Source: Archaeoglobus fulgidus DSM 4304 (GTDB taxonomy: Archaea; Halobacteriota; Archaeoglobi; Archaeoglobales; Archaeoglobaceae). From it: a stretch of DNA of 32,000 nucleotides. A program made the translations under genes and the position numbers. Of the stretch, positions 2,491 to 28,042 are shown piece by piece. The first letter of the stretch is position 1. Every line of letters starts with the position of its first letter. Location of the stretch: NCBI RefSeq assembly GCF_000008665.1, contig NC_000917.1, forward strand, positions 180,001-212,000. The letters run 5' to 3'. Under the pieces are notes generated by a model. That model was not told where the DNA came from. It made no database searches and saw only the letters and a list, made by a program, of their open reading frames with translations.

Positions 2491-3978
2491 TCATCGCTCA
2501 CTCAGCTTTACCCTCGCAGCTTTTAACCTTATCACAAAGGTCGCTCCGTGGGGCTTTGTATCTTCAACCCACACTTTACCCCCATACCTCTCCACGACCC
2601 TCTTGACGATGTAAAGCCCCAGTCCCGTCCCGCCAGTCTCACCGTACTTGAAGCTCTCCTTGAAAATCTGCCTCCTGATTTCCAAGGGGATTCCTACTCC
2701 GTAGTCCACAACCCTAATCTCGCAGTCATCCTCAAACTCACTGAGGATTATGTCCACCCTGTTCGTCCTTCCGTGCTTGATTGCGTTTGAAATGAGATTT
2801 TCAAGGACGGAGTATATTGCACCGTCCGCCATTGCAACACAGCTTCCCTTTATGTTTATCTCGATATTGAAAGACTTTGCCACCTCCTCTGCAACCTCTC
2901 GCATGTTGATGGGCTTCAGCTTCTCGCTCATCGTGAGAACAATTTTTTCGAGCTCCCTTATCTTGTCTATGTAGGAGCTGCTTTCCTCAACAGCTTTCAT
3001 GACCTTGTCGAGAAGCTCCTCCCTTTTCGTCATTCGGTACGTCTCGACGTATCCCGATATGATCTGCAGCTTGTTCAAAATATCGTGTCTCAGCATCCTG
3101 TTTATCAGCTTGAGAATTTCCTGCAACTCGTTTACTTGAGCGTAGAGTTCTGCATATTTCTTCCTCTCCGCGTCGAGGTCGTAGTAGCTGAGAAGCGTGA
3201 TTTCTGTCCTGTAGAATTTGTAGAGAACTGTCAGTAGCACTATGTTTGAGAATGTGAAAATGGCTGTAGAGAGGTCGAAGTCCAGCCACCCCCTGAAAGA
3301 CCTCAGGAGGGCCACATCGCTGATGTACTTCAGTATGAAGTAAAGCAGAAAGGATTTGTAGTAAGCCGCAGACTCCGTTTTGAAGTAAGCAGCTGTGAGC
3401 GTTAACAGAGAAAGAATTATCACAGAGTCGCATATCAGAGTTTCCAGATGTATAAACGTTGACAGATTGGAGTACTCAAGACCTACCAGCTCATAACTGG
3501 AAAAAACAAGGATGGGTATTGCGAGGATTGCGGGCAGAAAGTGCTTTACATCGAAATACCTCATCTCCCTCAAAATCTTCCAGAGGAAGAATCCGAGAAT
3601 CGGCGTTTCTGCCAGAAGGTATATCGGTATAAAGTACTCAAAGTGCTCAACCTTCAGTTGAAAGTCGCTCCTCACCCAAACCATCTGACCAACGCTGAGA
3701 ATCGAGAGCAGCAATAATCCCGAAAAAAATGCGAGGGTGGAGAAGAGCGTTCTCCTTTCGCTCTTGGATGCTCTTGCTAAGTAGACTGAAGCGATAAATG
3801 CAACCATTACCAAAATAATATTAAATAGGTATATACTTGGCAGAAATACATAGGGGGGCAGACCGTAATAGTAATTTACGGTGAACAGAGTAAGCTCAAA
3901 CAGTGATAGCAGCAATCCAACTGCGTAGATACTCATTATTGTTATTACGTTGAGGTAATTAATAAACCTAACTGCCAA
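2491..3978 (-). CDS. Membrane-bound sensor histidine kinase (polytopic N-terminal domain, HisKA-like H box, HATPase_c)
   Basis: About 260 aa of hydrophobic helices, followed by an H box (RMLRHDILNKLQII), an N box (ENLISNAIKHG), G1 (VDYGVGIP) and G2 (GGTGLGLYIVKRVV). The start is uncertain: TTG at 3978 or ATG at 3936. Confidence 0.85.
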   Translation of the reverse strand: MAVRFINYLNVITIMSIYAVGLLLSLFELTLFTVNYYYGLPPYVFLPSIYLFNIILVMVAFIASVYLARASKSERRTLFSTLAFFSGLLLLSILSVGQMVWVRSDFQLKVEHFEYFIPIYLLAETPILGFFLWKILREMRYFDVKHFLPAILAIPILVFSSYELVGLEYSNLSTFIHLETLICDSVIILSLLTLTAAYFKTESAAYYKSFLLYFILKYISDVALLRSFRGWLDFDLSTAIFTFSNIVLLTVLYKFYRTEITLLSYYDLDAERKKYAELYAQVNELQEILKLINRMLRHDILNKLQIISGYVETYRMTKREELLDKVMKAVEESSSYIDKIRELEKIVLTMSEKLKPINMREVAEEVAKSFNIEINIKGSCVAMADGAIYSVLENLISNAIKHGRTNRVDIILSEFEDDCEIRVVDYGVGIPLEIRRQIFKESFKYGETGGTGLGLYIVKRVVERYGGKVWVEDTKPHGATFVIRLKAARVKLSER

Positions 3979-4048
3979 TTCTTTTCAAAAAAATTTATGT
4001 CTTTGTATAAACCAATAAAACTTTTTTACCTTGGGGCGAGGAGGAGCG

Positions 4049-5494
4049 ATGGCCTACGAAGACCTCAGGGAGTTTATAGGCAGACTTGAAGATAAGGGGG
4101 AACTGGCGAGAGTGAAGCACGAAGTCAGCCCGATTCTCGAAATGAGTGAAGTTGCTGACAGAACTGTAAAGGCCGGAGGGAAGGCTCTGCTTTTCGAAAG
4201 GCCGAAGGGTTACGACATCCCGGTTTTTATGAACGCCTTCGGAACTGAGAGGAGGATGAAGCTCGCTCTCGAGGTGGAAAGGTTGGAGGAAATCGGGGAA
4301 AGATTACTTTCCGCGCTGGAATTCAGACCATCTTCTTTTATGGATGCTTTGAAGGGAGTTGGGATGCTAAAGGACTTCATGTCGTTCATCCCTAAAAAGA
4401 CAGGCAAAGCTCCCTGCAAGGAGGTGGTGGCTGAAAGTCTGGATAAGTTCCCAATTCTCAAGTGCTGGCCGAAGGATGCGGGCAGGTTCATAACTTTTCC
4501 GGTTGTGATAACTAAAGACCCCGAAACCGGGGAGATGAACGCTGGAATGTACAGAATGCAGGTTTTCGATGGAAAAACAACCGGAATGCACTGGCAGATT
4601 CACAAGCACGGGGCGGAGCACTTCAGGAAGATGGCTGAGAAGGGAGGGGGGAAGATTGAGGTTGCCGTTGCCATTGGAGTTGACCCTGCAACCCTCTACG
4701 CTGCAACGGCCCCTCTGCCTTCGGGCATTAGCGAGTTCATGTTTGCCGGCTTTATAAGAAAGGAGAGGCTGAAGGTGACTGAATGCGAGACAGTTGACCT
4801 GCTCGTCCCAGCGAATGCGGAGATTATCCTTGAAGGATACGTGAGGGTGGATGAGATGAGAGTGGAAGGGCCCTTTGGAGACCACACCGGCTACTACACC
4901 CCACCAGAACCTTATCCTGTTTTTCACATAACCCACATCACTCACAGGGAGAACCCAATCTACCACGCCACCGTCGTTGGAAAGCCGCCGATGGAGGACG
5001 CATGGCTCGGCAAGGCGACGGAAAGAATTTTCCTCCCGATACTCCGGATGATGCATCCTGAAATTGTGGACATCAACCTTCCCGTGGAGGGAGCATTTCA
5101 CAACCTCGCAATCGTTTCAATCAAGAAAAGATATCCGGGGCAGGCCAAAAAGGTCATGTACGCAATCTGGGGTACAGGAATGCTCTCTCTCACGAAGATT
5201 GTGGTTGTGGTGGATGATGATGTCAACGTGCACGACATGAGGGAGGTTGTCTGGGCGGTAACCTCGCGCTTCGACCCTGCAAGGGATGTCGTTATCCTTC
5301 CACCCTCTCCCACCGACTCCCTCGACCACTCCGCCTACATTCCAAACCTGGCGGGGAAGCTCGGAATCGATGCGACCAAGAAGTGGAGGGATGAGGGCTA
5401 CGAGCGCGAGTGGCCGGATGTGGTGGAGATGGACGCAGAGACAAAGAGGAAAGTTGATGCAATCTGGAACGAGATAAGGAACATGGTTTTATGA
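4049..5494 (+). CDS. UbiD-family (prFMN-dependent) decarboxylase
   Basis: Full-length similarity in pattern to UbiD (DLREFIGRLEDKGEL..., GMYRMQV, GDHTGYY). GGAGG lies 5 nt upstream of the ATG at 4049. The track's TTG at 4031 is probably too early. Confidence 0.85.
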   Translation: MAYEDLREFIGRLEDKGELARVKHEVSPILEMSEVADRTVKAGGKALLFERPKGYDIPVFMNAFGTERRMKLALEVERLEEIGERLLSALEFRPSSFMDALKGVGMLKDFMSFIPKKTGKAPCKEVVAESLDKFPILKCWPKDAGRFITFPVVITKDPETGEMNAGMYRMQVFDGKTTGMHWQIHKHGAEHFRKMAEKGGGKIEVAVAIGVDPATLYAATAPLPSGISEFMFAGFIRKERLKVTECETVDLLVPANAEIILEGYVRVDEMRVEGPFGDHTGYYTPPEPYPVFHITHITHRENPIYHATVVGKPPMEDAWLGKATERIFLPILRMMHPEIVDINLPVEGAFHNLAIVSIKKRYPGQAKKVMYAIWGTGMLSLTKIVVVVDDDVNVHDMREVVWAVTSRFDPARDVVILPPSPTDSLDHSAYIPNLAGKLGIDATKKWRDEGYEREWPDVVEMDAETKRKVDAIWNEIRNMVL

Positions 5495-6987
5495 GGAGCG
5501 TTGAAGCTTTATACTACAAGCTTTTCTCAATACCGAGAGCGGAAATAATGCTTGTAGCTTCTCTTTTTGCAGCTTTACTGCTTTCCCTGCTGGATGCTAG
5601 CCTTCTCTATCTGTGGGCTTTGGTTTTCGCTGTCTCACTTGCAGCCTTGAAGGTTGCAAAGCTGAAATTCGACCTTAAGAGAATCTCCTTCCTCGCAATC
5701 TTCATAACAACCCTCAGCACGCCGGCTGTTGTGTTAAAGGGCAATGCAACGGCTTCAGCCTTCGTCCTTTTCATCACTTACTACTTCTGCTCTGAAAGAA
5801 AGGCTCTATCAGTCCCGCTCGCATCACTGCCGTATATTGCCCTCAGCCCCCAAATTTCGACTCTGATAGGCCTTCTTATCTCAACCCTCCTTTTTCTGCT
5901 TTACATCAGAATTCTCGACGTCAAAGTTGGGGTTGTCAGGATTAGAAACTTCGTCGAGAAGTTCGTCCTGTTCTGGCTGACCTCCAATCCCAAATTCATG
6001 GAGGAGTTCCTTGAAGACTCTGCAGATGATTTCGAAGGCAGAGTGAGGTGCTTGGCGGTTAATGAAGCAAGGCTTGTTCAGACGGACTTCCACCCCGGCC
6101 CCTTCAGAAACGTTGGCGGAGCGATGCTTGTGGAGAAGCTCTCCGATGGTGGTATTTACCTCCACTCTCCCACTTCCCACGCCAGGAATCCAGTGAGTGC
6201 GGAGGAGGTGGAAAAAATCGTTTCGGCGGTCAGGTGCTCTGAAAAGGCTCTCACACCTCAAAAACCCTTTAAGGTTGAGAGCGAGAACTTTGAGGCCTAC
6301 TGCTTTCCCTTTGCAGAAACGAGGATGGTCTTTGTCAGCGGAAAAAGGCACATCGACGATTTTATCATAAACTCCGAGAGCTTCGTTGTTGACTGCCACA
6401 ACGCATACGAGGAAAACTACGACCCTGATGAAGGCGAGGTGGGGGAGATAGCGAGGCTGGTAAAGGTAGCGGAGGAAAGAACTTCTGAGCCCTCAAACGC
6501 TAAATCGGCATTCGTCCGCGTTGATGCCGAAACCGACAGCCTGTGCGGCTACGCTGCTGCGGTTCTGCTGGATTACGGGGAGGAGAGGTATGCGATTGTT
6601 GTTTTTGATGCCAACAACGTCGATTTGAGGTTCAGAAGACACGTCGAAAAGCTTTTTGGCGAGATGGGTTACACGGCGGTTGTTGCATCAACGGACAACC
6701 ACGCCAAAACCGGAATGAGAGCCAAGCTCGCCTACAAGCCAGCGGGTCAGGATGAAAGGGACTGGGAAGTTGCGGAGAAGCTGGCCAATTGCTGCAGGGA
6801 AGCTGAGTTGAAAGATGCTGTTTTCAGCTACGGTGAGCGGAGAGTTAAAGTCAAGGTTATGGGGGAGAAGCTTTTGAGGGATGCCGAGGTGGCTGTTGAG
6901 AGAAGAGCAAAGGGGCTCATCGCAACTTTTTTAGCGTTCGCGGCCACAAACTATTTGTTAAGCACAATGTTGAGATTCATTGCTTAA
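5491..6987 (+). CDS. Polytopic membrane protein with a large soluble domain and a C-terminal TM helix (possibly the archaeal DUF2070 family); function unknown
   Basis: Its ATG overlaps the ubiD stop (ATGA at 5491-5494). It has about 5 N-terminal TM helices, a soluble region with HPGPF, HSPTSHARNP and STDNH motifs, and a terminal TM helix. The family assignment is from memory and weak. Confidence 0.6.
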   Translation: MRSVEALYYKLFSIPRAEIMLVASLFAALLLSLLDASLLYLWALVFAVSLAALKVAKLKFDLKRISFLAIFITTLSTPAVVLKGNATASAFVLFITYYFCSERKALSVPLASLPYIALSPQISTLIGLLISTLLFLLYIRILDVKVGVVRIRNFVEKFVLFWLTSNPKFMEEFLEDSADDFEGRVRCLAVNEARLVQTDFHPGPFRNVGGAMLVEKLSDGGIYLHSPTSHARNPVSAEEVEKIVSAVRCSEKALTPQKPFKVESENFEAYCFPFAETRMVFVSGKRHIDDFIINSESFVVDCHNAYEENYDPDEGEVGEIARLVKVAEERTSEPSNAKSAFVRVDAETDSLCGYAAAVLLDYGEERYAIVVFDANNVDLRFRRHVEKLFGEMGYTAVVASTDNHAKTGMRAKLAYKPAGQDERDWEVAEKLANCCREAELKDAVFSYGERRVKVKVMGEKLLRDAEVAVERRAKGLIATFLAFAATNYLLSTMLRFIA

Positions 6988-7002
6988 AAGGAGGTGATCG
7001 TT

Positions 7003-8175
7003 ATGGACGCAGAGACGTTAAAAGAGTTAATCAGGGATGATTTCGAGGTTATTAACGCAAATGAGACGGTTTCGAAGCTGTTTCCGATGCTTGAAAAGCT
7101 GGACAGGGATAAGGCAAATGCGATACTTGTGGAGGAAGACGGAAAAATAGTCGGTGTTGTTAGGGAAAAGGACCTGATCAGGGGGAGTGTTTTGAAAAAC
7201 CCCCATGAAACTAAGGTTAAATCCCTTCTTGTAAGAACGGGAAAAATTGATTTGAACGAGCTTGACCCCTACAAAGTTGCGAGGAGGTTTGTTGAAGACT
7301 CCACACCCTTCGTTATAGTCCAGATTGACGATAAAAGGGTTGGAGTCATCTACATTAACGACTTCCTAAGCGCCCTTAAGGACGAGTTTAAGGACGTGAA
7401 GGTCAGAGAAGTGATGAATCCAGAGGTAATCACAGTAAGGAGGTTCGACAGCGCCGCTAAAGCGCTTTCGGTGATGAGAACTCACGGAATTGACAGGGTT
7501 GTGGTTGTGGATGAGAACAACAAGGTAATTGGAATTCTCACAGGCAAAGATGTAGTGGACAGGGTTATCTCCCCGAGAAAGAGAGCAAGGATGGGAGATT
7601 CGAGCGGAGAGAAGGAGAAGACACTATCGATCATGGTGGAGAGCATAATGAGCTCTCCGGTGGTCTCGGTTAGCAGGAACGACAGCGTTGCAGAGGTCAT
7701 CGACCTAATGGTTGAGAACAGAATTTCGAGCGTTGTTGTTACCAGAGACGGCCTGCCCGACGGCATTGTAATAAAGAAGGACATTCTGGAGTACTACCTT
7801 AAGAAGGAGTCGAGAAAGGAGTTCAACGTTCAGATTTCGACTGCAGACATAACACTCGATGAGTTCGATAGGGAAGCAATATTGGAGGACGTGGAGAAGC
7901 TGATGAGAAAGTTTTCCGACTTTCTCGGAGAGTCCTTCTTGTTTATCTACATAAAGAGGCACAAGGAGCATTTCCGCAATCTGCCTCTGATTCACGTCAG
8001 GCTGAAGCTCGCAAGCGAGAAGGGTAACTTCATGGTCAGTGGCGAGAGCTGGGGAGTGGAGTACGCCGTCCATGTGGCGCTGAAGAAGCTCGAAAGAGAG
8101 ATACTGAAGGAGAAAGAGCTGCTGGAAGACAAAAGAATGATAAAAAGGTTCTACGAAGAAGTTCTCGAATACTAA
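7003..8175 (+). CDS. Four-CBS (two Bateman modules) protein with a C-terminal HPF/RaiA-like domain
   Basis: AAGGAGGTG lies upstream of the ATG at 7003. There are four CBS repeats (e.g. GIDRVVVVDENNKVIGILTGKDV, RISSVVVTRDGLPDGIVIKKDI). The C-terminal ~100 aa follows the YfiA/HPF pattern (see findings). Confidence 0.8.
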   Translation: MDAETLKELIRDDFEVINANETVSKLFPMLEKLDRDKANAILVEEDGKIVGVVREKDLIRGSVLKNPHETKVKSLLVRTGKIDLNELDPYKVARRFVEDSTPFVIVQIDDKRVGVIYINDFLSALKDEFKDVKVREVMNPEVITVRRFDSAAKALSVMRTHGIDRVVVVDENNKVIGILTGKDVVDRVISPRKRARMGDSSGEKEKTLSIMVESIMSSPVVSVSRNDSVAEVIDLMVENRISSVVVTRDGLPDGIVIKKDILEYYLKKESRKEFNVQISTADITLDEFDREAILEDVEKLMRKFSDFLGESFLFIYIKRHKEHFRNLPLIHVRLKLASEKGNFMVSGESWGVEYAVHVALKKLEREILKEKELLEDKRMIKRFYEEVLEY

Positions 8176-9386
8176 ATTTTTTCCAACCTTTTTCTCACAC
8201 TCTCCGCATGCCACCTCAACCCTTCAGCTTCTGCAATTTTTACTACATCCCCTCCAATTCTCCTCATGCTCTCCTCGCTCAGCATCTGGAAGGTGAAGTG
8301 CTTCAGAAAGCTCTCAACGCTCAGGCCGCCGTAAATCTTGGCGTAGCCTGCAGTGGGTAAAACGTGGTTCGTTCCAGAGGCGTAGTCTCCTGCTGCGACG
8401 GGAGAGAAGTTTCCGAGAAAAACGCTGCCAGCATTTCTGACTTTCCCGAGCCATTCCTCCGGATTTTTAACCGCTACCGTGAGGTGCTCCGGAGCAAATT
8501 CGTTCGAAATTTCAAAGGCCTCCGCCAAGTCCTCAACAACGAAAACGGCGAAGTTGCTGAAATCTCCTTCCGATTTGACCTTTTTTTCCACCTCGTCGGC
8601 AACTTTCCGGGAGGTTGTGAGAACCACAGCCACTGCCATCGGGTCGTGCTCAAGCTGAGCGAGGCAGTCGCAGGCTATGAAGTCCGCATTAGCAGTTTCG
8701 TCCGCTATAACGAGAATTTCCGAAGGGCCTGCAGGCATGTCTATTGCCACATCCTTTGCCACAAGAAGCTTGGCCGCTGTGACGTAGATGTTTCCAGGCC
8801 CCACAATCTTGTAAACCTTCTCAACAGTTTCGGTTCCGTATGCCATGGCCGCTATCGCCTGCGCTCCGCCTGCCTTGTAAACCTCATCAAATTCGGCAAT
8901 ATCGAGGGCAACGAGGGTTAGTGGGTTTACTTTACCATCCTTGTTGGGAGGGGTGCAGGCGACCAGTTTCTCAACTCCCGCAATCTTTGCCGGAACGCCT
9001 ATCATTAAGGCCGTTGATGGATAGCTTGCTCTCCCGCCTGGAATGTAAGCGCCAACCTTCTCTATGGGGGTGTAGATTTTCCCCATAACGCAGTCCTCGA
9101 ACTCAACCTTCATATCCCTCTCAACTGATGTGACGTAGTGGAACCTGTAGATGTTCTCCTTCGCCACTTCAAGAGCGTCAATGAGGCCGTCATCCACCGC
9201 ATCATAAGCCTTCTCAAACTCATCCTCCGTAACTCTCAGGCTGTCAAGCTCGACTCCGTCCAAATCCCTCGTAAATCGGATTACAGCTTTATCTCCCTCC
9301 CTTTTGACGGCCTCAACGATTGGCTTTACCTTTTCAATGTAATCGTCAATGCTGACACTCCTTCTGAGCCTCAGAATTTCCTCCAT
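8172..9386 (-). CDS. hisD: Histidinol dehydrogenase
   Basis: 404 aa with typical HisD sequence throughout (GGAQAIAAMAYGT, EHDP, APEHL, GDYASGTNHVLPT). Confidence 0.95.
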   Translation of the reverse strand: MEEILRLRRSVSIDDYIEKVKPIVEAVKREGDKAVIRFTRDLDGVELDSLRVTEDEFEKAYDAVDDGLIDALEVAKENIYRFHYVTSVERDMKVEFEDCVMGKIYTPIEKVGAYIPGGRASYPSTALMIGVPAKIAGVEKLVACTPPNKDGKVNPLTLVALDIAEFDEVYKAGGAQAIAAMAYGTETVEKVYKIVGPGNIYVTAAKLLVAKDVAIDMPAGPSEILVIADETANADFIACDCLAQLEHDPMAVAVVLTTSRKVADEVEKKVKSEGDFSNFAVFVVEDLAEAFEISNEFAPEHLTVAVKNPEEWLGKVRNAGSVFLGNFSPVAAGDYASGTNHVLPTAGYAKIYGGLSVESFLKHFTFQMLSEESMRRIGGDVVKIAEAEGLRWHAESVRKRLEKI

Positions 9387-12242: not shown

Positions 12243-12572
12243 ATGCTTCCGATGAACCCAAAGCAGATGAAAAAGATGATGAAGCAGATGGGAATAGAAA
12301 TGGAGGAACTCGATGCCGAGGAGGTTATTATCAGAACGAGTGATGAGGAGCTCATTTTCCGCAACCCTAACGTTTCCAAGATTTCCGCGAGGGGAGTTGA
12401 GACGTTCCAGATTGTTGGGGAGTATGAGGTTGTAAAGAGGCCGCCGAAAATAAGCGAGGATGATATCAAGCTCATAATGGAGCAGGCCAACGTTGATGAA
12501 GAGACTGCAAGAAGGGCGCTTGAGGAGGCGGGAGGAGACCTGGCGGAAGCTCTTATGAAGCTGCAGGAATGA
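12243..12572 (+). CDS. nac: Nascent polypeptide-associated complex protein (NAC domain plus UBA)
   Basis: MNPKQMKKMMKQMGIEMEEL... NAC domain and C-terminal UBA (EDDIKLIMEQANVDEETARRALEEAGGDLAEALMKL). Confidence 0.9.
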   Translation: MLPMNPKQMKKMMKQMGIEMEELDAEEVIIRTSDEELIFRNPNVSKISARGVETFQIVGEYEVVKRPPKISEDDIKLIMEQANVDEETARRALEEAGGDLAEALMKLQE

Positions 12573-13312
12573 AGCCTCCGGTTGTTTTAACTAGAGGGAA
12601 GTACAGCTTCCTGGTTGACAGGTTTGAAGGTAAGCTCCACACACATCACGGTATAATCAACCTTGAGGAGCTTAGGGGAAAGGACTACGGGGATGAGGTG
12701 AGGACGCACCTCGGTGTCAAGTACAGGATTGCCCCCTTCAACCCGGCAGATTTCTTCAGGCACTTCAAGAGAGGTGCAACTCCAATCATGCCCAAGGACA
12801 TAGGAGCGATAATTGCCTACACCGGCCTATCTCCGGACTCGCTGATTTTCGACGCCGGAACTGGGAGCGGAATTCTTGCTGCCTACCTCGCGTACTTCAA
12901 CAAGTACGGGGAGGTTGTGACCGTGGAGAAAAGGCCCGACTTTGCTAAAATTGCGAGGGAGAACTTCAGAACTGCAGGATTGAAGAACATTCACCAGATT
13001 GTTGGCGACGCTCTGGCTGTTGCGGACTCCCTTAAGGTTGAGTTTGACCTCATCACTCTCGACATGAAGGATGACGTTGCCTTCATTAGGAAGGCGAAAG
13101 AAATTCTGAAGCCGGGAGGGCATATCGTTGTTTACAACCCCTACATCGAGGCTGCGAGGGAAGTTTATCTGGAAATGGAAAGGCGCGGATTCAAGGAGCT
13201 CGAAGCGTTCGAGTTGCTTAGAGTGGACCTAGACATCAAAAGAGTTGGGACGAGAACCTCAACGAAGGTCTGGCACACAGGCTACCTCGTTTTTGGAAGG
13301 TATCTGGGATAG
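12569..13312 (+). CDS. trmI: tRNA (adenine-N1)-methyltransferase, TrmI/GCD14 family
   Basis: ATGA overlap with nac. Contains PKDIGAIIAYTGLSPDSLIFDAGTGSGILAAYLA (GCD14 motif plus SAM motif I) and a Rossmann-like remainder. Confidence 0.8.
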   Translation: MKPPVVLTRGKYSFLVDRFEGKLHTHHGIINLEELRGKDYGDEVRTHLGVKYRIAPFNPADFFRHFKRGATPIMPKDIGAIIAYTGLSPDSLIFDAGTGSGILAAYLAYFNKYGEVVTVEKRPDFAKIARENFRTAGLKNIHQIVGDALAVADSLKVEFDLITLDMKDDVAFIRKAKEILKPGGHIVVYNPYIEAAREVYLEMERRGFKELEAFELLRVDLDIKRVGTRTSTKVWHTGYLVFGRYLG

Positions 13313-27213: not shown

Positions 27214-27961
27214 ACTCCATCACTTCCTCCATATGCATATTGCCATGGACTATCATGTGCAGTGCTTTGGCAATTCTCACTGGATGGTCGCTGTTAAATA
27301 CGTTTCTCCCCGCAGCCACTCCCGCAGCACCTTTTGCAATTGCATCTTCTACCCTCTTCAGGAACTCGTGCTCGCTTCCCTTGCTCCCCCCAGCTACGAC
27401 GACGGGAATATCGCACACCGCAACGACCTCCTCGAAACTCTGCACGTATGGAACCTTCAGAATGTCAGCTCCGAGCTCGTATCCGATTCTGGCCGCATGC
27501 CTTACGGTTTCAGTGGTTACATCGATGCTACCTCTCGGATACATCATCGCCAGAAGGGGAATCCCGTAGTCATCGCAAATCTCTGAAATTGTTCCTGCCT
27601 TTTCTATCTGCTCAGCCTCCGTTTTGCTGCCAATGTTTACGTGAATGCTCACAGCATCGGCCCCAAGAGCGATTGCCTTCTCAACGCTCGTAACAATTCT
27701 CTTGTCGTTCGGATCAGGAGCGAGGGAGGTTGAGGCGCTGAGATGGATGATTAAAGCTGCATCAATATCTGCAAGAACTGCAGAGCGTTTCGCGACGCCT
27801 TTATGCACTATGACTGCGTCGATATAATCCTGCACCTCCTCAACGACTCTATCCACTTTTTCAATCCCTTTTTCCGGTTTCGTTATCCCGTGGTCCATCG
27901 GGAGTATTACTGTCCTTCCGTTTTTCATTATTCTGGACATCCTTCTTCTTTTACCTAACAT
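27188..27961 (-). CDS. aroA': 2-amino-3,7-dideoxy-D-threo-hept-6-ulosonate synthase (class I aldolase/DhnA family, MJ0400 type)
   Basis: Contains GRTVILPMDHG and the DhnA-type aldolase pattern (KVPY...VVVAGG). I take the ATG at 27961, with GAGGTG 6 nt upstream, rather than the GTG at 27970. Overlaps aroB' by 26 nt. Confidence 0.85.
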   Translation of the reverse strand: MLGKRRRMSRIMKNGRTVILPMDHGITKPEKGIEKVDRVVEEVQDYIDAVIVHKGVAKRSAVLADIDAALIIHLSASTSLAPDPNDKRIVTSVEKAIALGADAVSIHVNIGSKTEAEQIEKAGTISEICDDYGIPLLAMMYPRGSIDVTTETVRHAARIGYELGADILKVPYVQSFEEVVAVCDIPVVVAGGSKGSEHEFLKRVEDAIAKGAAGVAAGRNVFNSDHPVRIAKALHMIVHGNMHMEEVMEYEGNMVVG

Positions 27962-28042
27962 ATAAAACACCTCTTATATTTTTAGAGCATAAACCCATAC
28001 ACAAGCACGGAGCCACTGCAGAACACCTCCCGCTAATTAGAA

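Follow-up and report, generated by a model that had tools for sequence, protein, structure and literature searches.

A window of 32,000 nucleotides from the genome of Archaeoglobus fulgidus DSM 4304 (the whole stretch of DNA analysed here, positions 180,001 to 212,000 of contig NC_000917.1) carries, at its positions 7003-8175 on the forward strand, a gene very probably encoding the A. fulgidus orthologue of HibA (also described as Hib and AHA), a ribosome hibernation factor of archaea. The domain architecture of the encoded protein, its folds, its homology to HibA and the conservation of key contact residues were all computed here, the folds with AlphaFold2 (AF2). The protein joins four CBS motifs to a C-terminal domain related to the hibernation factors HPF and RaiA, and the parts of the gene are as follows.

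7003..8175, forward strand: hibA/AHA-family gene, 390 codons and a stop codon (identity to WP_048064188.1 / AIG97029.1; homology to Pyrococcus abyssi HibA).
7003..7809, forward strand: CBS module, residues 1-269, with four CBS motifs making up two Bateman modules (Pfam, AF2 model, Foldseek).
7531..7551, forward strand: predicted CBS3 nucleotide motif G177-I-L-T180-G-K-D183, with the Thr/Asp ribose-binding pair (sequence conservation).
7564..7629, forward strand: extended basic CBS3 loop, residues 188-209, VISPRKRARMGDSSGEKEKTLS (AF2 model, isoelectric point, alignment to P. abyssi HibA).
7762..7782, forward strand: CBS4 motif G254-I-V-I257-K-K-D260 (GIVIKKD), residues 254-260 (sequence comparison).
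7810..8118, forward strand: HPF/RaiA-like domain, residues 270-372 (AF2, Foldseek, the profile A3 described below, contact residues).
8119..8172, forward strand: C-terminal extension of helix α2, residues 373-390 (helix 352-389 in the models; P. abyssi contact residues).

In a sequence search of all Protein Data Bank (PDB) chains, the protein gave a full-length match to chain 9sr9_H (residues 6-386 against 6-387, E 2.3e-49), a chain of 392 amino acids labelled ‘Dehydrogenase’ that is present in eight PDB entries. Entries 9SR9-9SRF and 9T7H are complexes of the P. abyssi 70S ribosome with HibA (Madru et al., Nat Commun 2026, PMC13324472). The global alignment of the two proteins is collinear with short gaps only, at 33% identity overall, 23% in CBS1-2, 37% in CBS3-4 and 36% in the HPF domain; the C-terminal domain alone matches P. 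abyssi HibA with an E value of 1.6e-25. Both proteins have the same architecture, with about 269 residues of fourfold CBS sequence followed by the HPF/RaiA-like domain, and nearly the same length (390 residues in A. fulgidus, 392 in P. abyssi). They share a basic CBS3 loop with the pattern P-R...G...GEK, the Thr/Asp motif of CBS3, the contact residues Y/E/F/R/H/R and a C-terminal K-R-F. The A. fulgidus protein differs in having M197 in place of Y195, an isoleucine in the CBS4 motif, only 23% identity in CBS1-2 and a UbiD-DUF2070 gene neighbourhood.

A further solved protein, 9l96_a (406 amino acids, labelled ‘CBS domain-containing protein’), was matched with an E value of 3.7e-27 over the CBS3-4 region and the HPF-like domain. 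This chain, found also in 9l98, 9l9c and 9l9v, looks haloarchaeal by composition and may come from another HibA/AHA-ribosome complex; a literature search on 9L96, 9L98, 9L9C and 9L9V found no relevant paper.

The HPF/RaiA-like domain and its ribosome contacts

The AF2 model of the full protein, built on an alignment of 39 sequences, has a mean predicted local distance difference test (pLDDT) value of 82.3 and a predicted template modelling score of 0.79, and shows four CBS units followed by a β-α-β-β-β-α domain. The elements of this domain are β1 (274-281), α1 (287-308), β2 (311-324), β3 (327-338), β4 (341-349) and α2 (352-389); modelled alone, the domain reaches a pLDDT of 90.7. When this model was compared with the PDB by Foldseek, ranks 1 to 35 were all HPF, RaiA/YfiA, plastid pY or mycobacterial RafH/MPY structures, with a probability of 1.00 and E values of 1.3e-5 to 5e-3. 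The best superposition was with Listeria HPF (8uu7_w), with a TM score of 0.86 on the target and a root-mean-square deviation (rmsd) of 2.1 Å.

The sequence evidence agrees in kind and is fainter in score. The Pfam family PF02482 (Ribosomal_S30AE) aligns with residues 276-372 over profile positions 1-85 of 88, with an E value of 8e-4 for the domain alone. The same family was matched by 24 of 27 C-terminal domains of Archaeoglobaceae orthologues scanned singly (best E 2.5e-5), while other families recur in at most five of the 27. The profile A3, made from the A. fulgidus C-terminal domain and 41 standalone archaeal homologues, retrieved among PDB chains P. abyssi HibA (1.4e-27) and 9l96_a (1.4e-25), and also bacterial HPFs from Acinetobacter baumannii (7m4z_v, 1.3e-4), Bacillus subtilis (5njt_x, 3e-3) and Escherichia coli (4v8h_AX, 2e-3; 6h4n_x, 4e-3; 2rql_A, 9e-3). 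An hhalign comparison of the Archaeoglobaceae C-terminal profile with an E. coli RaiA sequence gave 23.6% probability over 37 columns, which is too weak to count alone; it aligned the very segment that the initial annotation had singled out (...GNFMVSGESWGVEYAVHVALKKLEREILK). A search with the C-terminal profile returned 232 clusters, a mixture of fused proteins of about 380 amino acids and standalone proteins of about 110, and this mixture matches the published distribution of HibA and ‘HPF/RaiA-like’ proteins.

The initial annotation, made from the letters and open reading frames alone, had noticed a resemblance to YfiA/HPF from about nucleotide 7822, where the stretch beginning FNVQIST starts at residue 274. 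The PF02482 alignment, its recurrence in orthologues and the fold matches place that resemblance above chance, and the structural comparison that it had proposed for the C-terminal domain did find an HPF fold. The Pfam comparison suggested beside it came out divided, with an alignment to nearly the whole profile and a bit score below the family cut-off. No NCBIfam (release 20) model describes the protein, and neither Pfam nor NCBIfam recognises the C-terminal domain at curated cut-offs. The domain is a remote homologue with the PF02482 fold and not a member of that family by the curated criterion.

In comparison with the bacterial and plastid HPF/RaiA proteins (YfiA, pY, and the N-terminal domain of long HPF), the β-α-β-β-β-α fold is the same (TM score up to 0.86, rmsd 2.1-3.5 Å) and the sequence homology is remote; the channel of the 30S A and P sites is the binding site in the solved archaeal orthologues too. 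In the HMMER alignments, the archaeal profile carries six additional residues between β2 and β3 and one plus two in the α1-β2 loop relative to E. coli HPF, and five plus two in the β2-β3 region relative to B. subtilis HPF. Helix α2 of the A. fulgidus protein (352-389) is much longer than that of the bacterial HPF. As far as alignments can tell, these extra residues and the long helix agree with published descriptions of HibA/AHA, which note two archaeal insertions and a longer helix. The bacterial HPF stands alone or is joined to the dimerisation domain of long HPF, whereas the A. fulgidus domain is fused to a CBS tetrad. We know of no 100S-type dimerisation in the HibA/AHA family.

Contacts of the P. 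abyssi protein with the ribosome were taken from Supplementary Data 1 of PMC13324472 and mapped onto the A. fulgidus protein. Of 53 contact residues in the P. abyssi C-terminal domain, 21 are identical and 37 similar. The identities at the decoding centre are Y316 (at U937 of h31), E322 (at G496), F324 and R325 (at A1461 and uS12), and H357 and R365 (at h44), corresponding in P. abyssi to Y317, E323, F325, R326, H358 and R366, respectively; G341 is a further identical contact residue. The decoding-centre sites compared were h44 A1461/A1492, h18 G496/G530, h31 and uS12. Y316, E322, R325 and R365 are also the majority residues across 52 diverse representatives of the family, among which F324, H357 and the K381-F383 cluster are more variable.

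The C-terminal helix extension holds L373, R378, K381, R382 and F383, the counterparts of the P. abyssi contact residues L374, R379, K382, R383 and F384, and the K381-R382-F383 cluster lies near h23, uS11 and eS28. In P. abyssi HibA the equivalent of this extension continues as far as the mRNA exit channel, with contacts to h23, h24, h28, uS7, uS11 and eS28 (PMC13324472).

A generic regulatory protein with CBS domains, such as a transcription regulator like HhpR or a Bateman protein controlling an enzyme, could in principle resemble HPF superficially and bind no ribosome. Public labels of the ‘CBS domain-containing protein’, ‘histidine kinase’, ‘signal-transduction protein’ and ‘predicted transcriptional regulator’ kind speak for such a role, as do the partial NCBIfam matches to HhpR and PrdR and the sub-threshold S30AE match. 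The HhpR model (NF053603), however, aligns with nothing but CBS motifs and reaches 45.2 bits where 520 are required, and HhpR falls into a separate family, CM-3, in the published phylogeny. As the C-terminal fold is that of solved HPFs at every one of the first 35 ranks, and the domain by itself is homologous to the ribosome-bound P. abyssi HibA, we regard this explanation as highly improbable.

The CBS module, its nucleotide site and the CBS3 loop

The initial annotation's four CBS motifs in residues 1-270 were recovered independently by Pfam (four stretches, E 5.7e-34), by the AF2 model and by Foldseek, and with them the proposed fusion of a CBS tetrad to an HPF/RaiA domain in a single polypeptide stands on the Pfam, AF2, profile and fold searches together. 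The approximate limits in the model are 1-62 (CBS1), 70-129 (CBS2), 131-189 (CBS3) and 210-269 (CBS4). Foldseek matched the full-length model to SriA-D, MJ1225, SSO3205, AMPK-γ and Dri, with E values of 1e-17 to 1e-13 over about 280 columns; the PDB copy used, dated to 2026-04-08, was without HibA entries, and the full-length model matched CBS-tetrad proteins only.

The closest structural counterparts of the N-terminal module are the Sri/ARC and Dri proteins. Dri of the Thermoproteota (PDB 9E6Q/9E7F) and SriA-D / ARC-P and ARC-A of Methanosarcina and Methanolobus (PDB 9ZNF, 9ZNG, 9ZNI) bind ribosomes and adenylates through a homologous CBS tetrad, matched in sequence over residues ~87-266 only (E 1e-11 to 1e-12). 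Dri has two CBS tetrads in 655 amino acids and no HPF-like domain. The Sri/ARC proteins are standalone chains of about 270 amino acids with a small occlusion element and no HPF domain, and two of them bind together, either in tandem or as an ARC-P/ARC-A complex. The phyletic distribution of Dri, Sri and ARC is largely exclusive with that of HibA/AHA. The A. fulgidus protein is not placed in the Sri/ARC/Dri group, as the matches are confined to the CBS module and it has an HPF-like domain; identity with ARC-P/ARC-A was likewise set aside, these being standalone CBS proteins without such a domain. AMPK-γ shows the same disc of four CBS motifs with canonical Thr/Asp adenylate motifs (Foldseek E ~1e-14, TM score 0.62-0.67 to the target, identity ~17%), although it is a subunit of a kinase heterotrimer and has no ribosome-binding domain.

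The canonical CBS motif is G-h-h-T/S-x-x-D. In CBS3 the sequence fits it, and none of 81 Archaeoglobaceae sequences departs from T180 or D183; across the 52 diverse representatives, position 180 is T or S in 47 and position 183 is D in 47. The interface between CBS3 and CBS4 is predicted from these residues to be an adenylate site. The CBS4 motif is altered. Its threonine position is T in 50 of the 52 representatives and I only in the A. fulgidus protein of that set, and 68 of the 81 Archaeoglobaceae sequences have I, M or V there; D260 is retained in the A. fulgidus protein. The motifs would thus predict one intact adenylate site and one altered, and with GIVIKKD the protein may have one adenylate site instead of two.

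The published nucleotide counts differ between members. The CBS module of HibA binds AMP with a dissociation constant of 12 µM, more tightly than ADP or ATP, and takes up one nucleotide per module, between CBS3 and CBS4 (PMC13324472). AHA of Haloferax volcanii, described as the same family in an independent preprint, has two AMP between CBS3 and CBS4 and inserts its loop 3 into the peptidyl-transferase centre (PTC) (Souza et al., bioRxiv 2026, PMC12934967). By that description its CBS tetrad sits on the 50S and its HPF domain on the 30S subunit, and its two AMP contrast with an A. fulgidus protein in which only the CBS3 motif is canonical. The genome taxonomy that the HibA authors followed places both Archaeoglobi and Haloferax in the phylum Halobacteriota.

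The extended loop of CBS3 is strongly basic (isoelectric point 10.3 for residues 188-209) and contains the sole stretch of the model with pLDDT below 50, residues 193-205. It aligns with residues 186-207 of P. abyssi HibA, IKPRFKAQYGELAGEKIPPFS, with P191, R192, E203 and K204 identical. The loop signature P..(R/K)...G...GEK..L, which is family-wide in the 52 diverse representatives, is present in the A. fulgidus protein. On this alignment the loop is the counterpart of the ‘PTC loop’ of P. abyssi HibA (190-207) and of AHA loop 3.

Proposed mode of action on the ribosome

Publications of 2025-26 have already described the fusion as Hib/HibA and AHA, covering fold, ribosome complexes, phenotype and distribution. 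HibA consists of the CBS module (1-269) and the HPF/RaiA-like domain (270-392) and occurs in 47% of archaeal genomes; the members named are P. abyssi PAB0961, Thermococcus barophilus TERMP_00697 and T. kodakarensis TK1186, and Archaeoglobi genomes were included in the authors' database (PMC13324472). For AHA, 3,160 homologues were counted in 2,723 species, with multiple paralogues per genome (PMC12934967). The initial annotation had mentioned CBS-containing hibernation factors as recently reported in some archaea; this was correct, and the A. fulgidus protein belongs to one such family, HibA/AHA. Its accompanying remark, which treated HPF-type factors as generally bacterial or plastid, is now out of date.

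In the P. abyssi complexes, the C-terminal domain occupies the mRNA/tRNA channel of the 30S subunit, touching h44, h18, uS12 and the tail of uS19. On the 50S subunit the N-terminal disc was seen in three places (PTC, uL5 and L1 stalk), and the loop 190-207 inserts into the PTC around A2834. HibA inhibits translation in extracts, for which the C-terminal domain is required, and deletion of hibA in T. barophilus doubles the regrowth lag and lowers the 70S pool by ~60% (PMC13324472). Knockout of AHA leads to a stationary-phase survival defect and a loss of ribosomal proteins (PMC12934967).

Ribosome binding, translation inhibition and ribosome preservation are thus known only for the proteins of P. 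abyssi / T. barophilus and of H. volcanii; by analogy with these, we infer ribosome binding, translation arrest and nucleotide binding in A. fulgidus. The ribosome-silencing function that had been guessed from the sequence is supported by the same analogy, because the homology to P. abyssi HibA extends over the full length of the protein. If the steps seen in the solved orthologue complexes apply, the HPF/RaiA-like domain (270-372) would lie in the 30S mRNA/tRNA channel at the decoding centre, over the A and P sites, with the terminal helix (373-390) extending toward the mRNA exit channel. On the 50S subunit, the disc formed by the four N-terminal CBS motifs would dock above the tRNA paths, where the basic CBS3 loop (188-209) could enter the PTC. 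One polypeptide would then grip both subunits and keep the idle 70S ribosome assembled, silent and protected from degradation in stationary phase or under stress. The cleft between CBS3 and CBS4, with T180 and D183, would accommodate an adenine nucleotide; the orthologue prefers AMP. That adenylate occupancy gates ribosome binding or release, and with it the coupling of energy charge to ribosome inactivation proposed in the initial annotation, is a hypothesis even for the type members.

Several observations weigh against this assignment or against parts of it. PF02482 scores 17.9 bits on the full protein and 20.5 bits on the domain alone, with a gathering cut-off of 23.7, and the NCBIfam model TIGR00741 (yfiA) scores 13.8 bits against a cut-off of 40.9. 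The mapped contact positions of the C-terminal domain are hardly better conserved than the rest of it, with 40% identity and 70% similarity against 38% and 61% at non-contact positions. In the regulatory half, the CBS4 threonine that is near-universal in the family is Ile257 here, and Tyr195 of P. abyssi, which stacks on a PTC adenine that is universally conserved, is Met197. As for energy sensing, HibA-ribosome complexes were not clearly changed by ATP or AMP (PMC13324472).

The gene, its neighbourhood and a second lineage

The open reading frame from ATG 7003 to 8175 translates into 390 amino acids. Upstream, the stop codon of the preceding gene (6985-6987) is followed by a strong Shine-Dalgarno sequence, in the context ...TAA AA GGAGGTGA TCGTT ATG. 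The listing program had placed the start at GTG 6994. ATG 7003 is taken as the right start because this GTG (6994-6996) sits within the Shine-Dalgarno sequence and because nearly all orthologues are 384-394 amino acids long; the coordinates 7003-8175 of the initial annotation agree with the translation it quoted, with the position of the ribosome-binding site and with these lengths. An exact-sequence look-up found the protein under WP_048064188.1 / AIG97029.1, labelled ‘CBS domain-containing protein [Archaeoglobus fulgidus]’. The DSM 4304 record (AAB91022.1 / O30028) has 393 amino acids from the GTG start and the label ‘conserved hypothetical protein’. The features adjoining the gene are the following.

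4031-5494, forward strand: UbiD-family decarboxylase (Pfam).
5491-6987, forward strand: DUF2070 membrane protein (Pfam).
6990..6997, forward strand: Shine-Dalgarno sequence GGAGGTGA, 5 nt before ATG 7003 (read from the sequence).
8172-9386, reverse strand: hisD (Pfam Histidinol_dh, E 5.7e-157).

Co-transcription of UbiD, DUF2070 and hibA is probable, because the first two genes overlap by 4 nt and the third follows on the same strand after a gap of 15 nt that holds the Shine-Dalgarno sequence. The reverse-strand hisD converges on hibA and the two 3' ends overlap by 4 nt (8172-8175), so that there is no space for an intergenic terminator. In a synteny scan with one genome per species, the order UbiD-DUF2070-HibA with converging hisD was found, whole or in part, in 28 of 80 Archaeoglobaceae loci. 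These 28 and the A. fulgidus protein form one clade in a neighbour-joining tree. No UbiD, DUF2070 or hisD neighbours were found in the other Archaeoglobaceae clades or beside two distant homologues (L081, L083), the only two informative full-length loci from a single-protein metagenome scan with P0121. The synteny is read as shared ancestry because it is limited to one clade, and a functional link of hibA to UbiD/DUF2070 was rejected as unsupported for the same reason.

The protein could be a true member of the HibA family whose main role is something other than hibernation, either as a constitutive ribosome-associated regulator or held by replication and recombination partners under nucleotide control. 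The level of AHA is equal in exponential and stationary phase (PMC12934967), and HibA of Thermococcales co-purified in pull-downs with proteins of DNA replication and recombination, its authors raising the idea of a sequestering partner (PMC13324472); the apparent operon with the DUF2070 membrane protein and the UbiD enzyme, and the drift of the CBS4 motif and of the PTC-loop tip in the Archaeoglobus lineage, point in the same direction. Against this, the protein retains the loop signature as well as the residues contacting the 30S decoding centre, the synteny is limited to one clade and absent from distant homologues, and the deletion phenotypes in two distant archaea concern ribosome preservation. 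Such a role is therefore very unlikely, and a hibernation factor of the HibA type is the preferred reading.

A second HibA-like lineage was found in Archaeoglobaceae as a separate clade of eight loci (L062, L066, L068 and L070-L074), 55-60% identical to the A. fulgidus protein; in most of them the match lies at about positions 5001-6160. Its HPF domain and CBS3 motif are intact, and its PTC loop is rewritten with one extra residue, from SPRKRARMGD.S-GEKEKTLS to (F/S)LGKDDRLG(H/Y)LS(M/K)KEKEKTLS. In five metagenome-assembled genomes (MAGs) it occurs beside a copy of the other type, and among named isolates it is found in A. sulfaticallidus and Geoglobus acetivorans. The lineage may be a genuine paralogue, or mixed bins may account for it.

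These duplicates bear on whether the A. fulgidus gene might be a degenerating or redundant copy, with hibernation carried out by another factor in the genome (Sri/ARC-type CBS proteins, the second HibA lineage or aSBDS). Several Archaeoglobaceae MAGs do seem to carry two HibA-like genes, and multiple AHA paralogues per genome have been reported (PMC12934967). The gene is intact, however, has a strong ribosome-binding site, and encodes 62 positions that are at least 97% conserved in the 81 Archaeoglobaceae sequences. A second HibA paralogue in A. fulgidus was looked for and discarded: none lies within the window, and when 5.8 billion proteins were searched, the second-lineage relatives included no protein from A. 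fulgidus. This hibA gene appears to be the only one in A. fulgidus, and redundancy is the least probable of the three alternatives considered, an extremely slight chance. Even jointly, the three leave orthology to HibA clearly the favoured reading, their combined probability being small.

Elsewhere in the window, two forward-strand regions (1055-2183 and 12243-13312) encode a PrmA/MTS-like methyltransferase, the exosome subunit Csl4, the nascent polypeptide-associated complex (NAC) and a GCD14-like tRNA methyltransferase; these translation- and RNA-related genes do not adjoin hibA. Rfam reports a C/D-box small RNA, snoPyro_CD, on the reverse strand at 2445-2498, with a score at threshold (45.1 bits against a gathering cut-off of 45.0, E 1.7e-6). 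It shares 8 nt with the 3' end of a histidine-kinase open reading frame (2491-3978, reverse strand) and abuts the final base of the forward-strand open reading frame 2137-2445. On the reverse strand at 23791-25653, a single open reading frame of 620 amino acids fuses prephenate dehydrogenase, chorismate mutase, prephenate dehydratase and an ACT domain. Downstream of it (25650-27970, reverse strand) lie genes for a type I dehydroquinase, dehydroquinate (DHQ) synthase II and a DeoC-type aldolase, and together these make up an archaeal-type aromatic amino-acid cluster.

It is conceivable, though we consider it doubtful, that the Archaeoglobus lineage has rewired the regulatory half of HibA, given the change of the CBS4 threonine to Ile, Met or Val, the unconserved tip of the PTC loop and the rewritten loop of the second lineage. 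If this were true, and the changes affected nucleotide stoichiometry or docking on the 50S subunit, these proteins would be natural variants for testing adenylate gating of ribosome binding and release. A still more tentative extension would make the translationally coupled DUF2070 membrane protein the ‘sequestering partner’ postulated by the HibA authors.

Archaeal ribosome hibernation was without known factors until 2024-26. The fusion of four CBS motifs with HPF is the most widespread archaeal hibernation factor, and it joins the bacterial HPF to energy sensing of the AMPK-γ type; a reading of the raw sequence alone recovered here a fusion whose discovery had needed cryo-electron microscopy. 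For A. fulgidus itself the value of the result lies mainly in annotation: the gene is under-annotated and can be renamed hibA.

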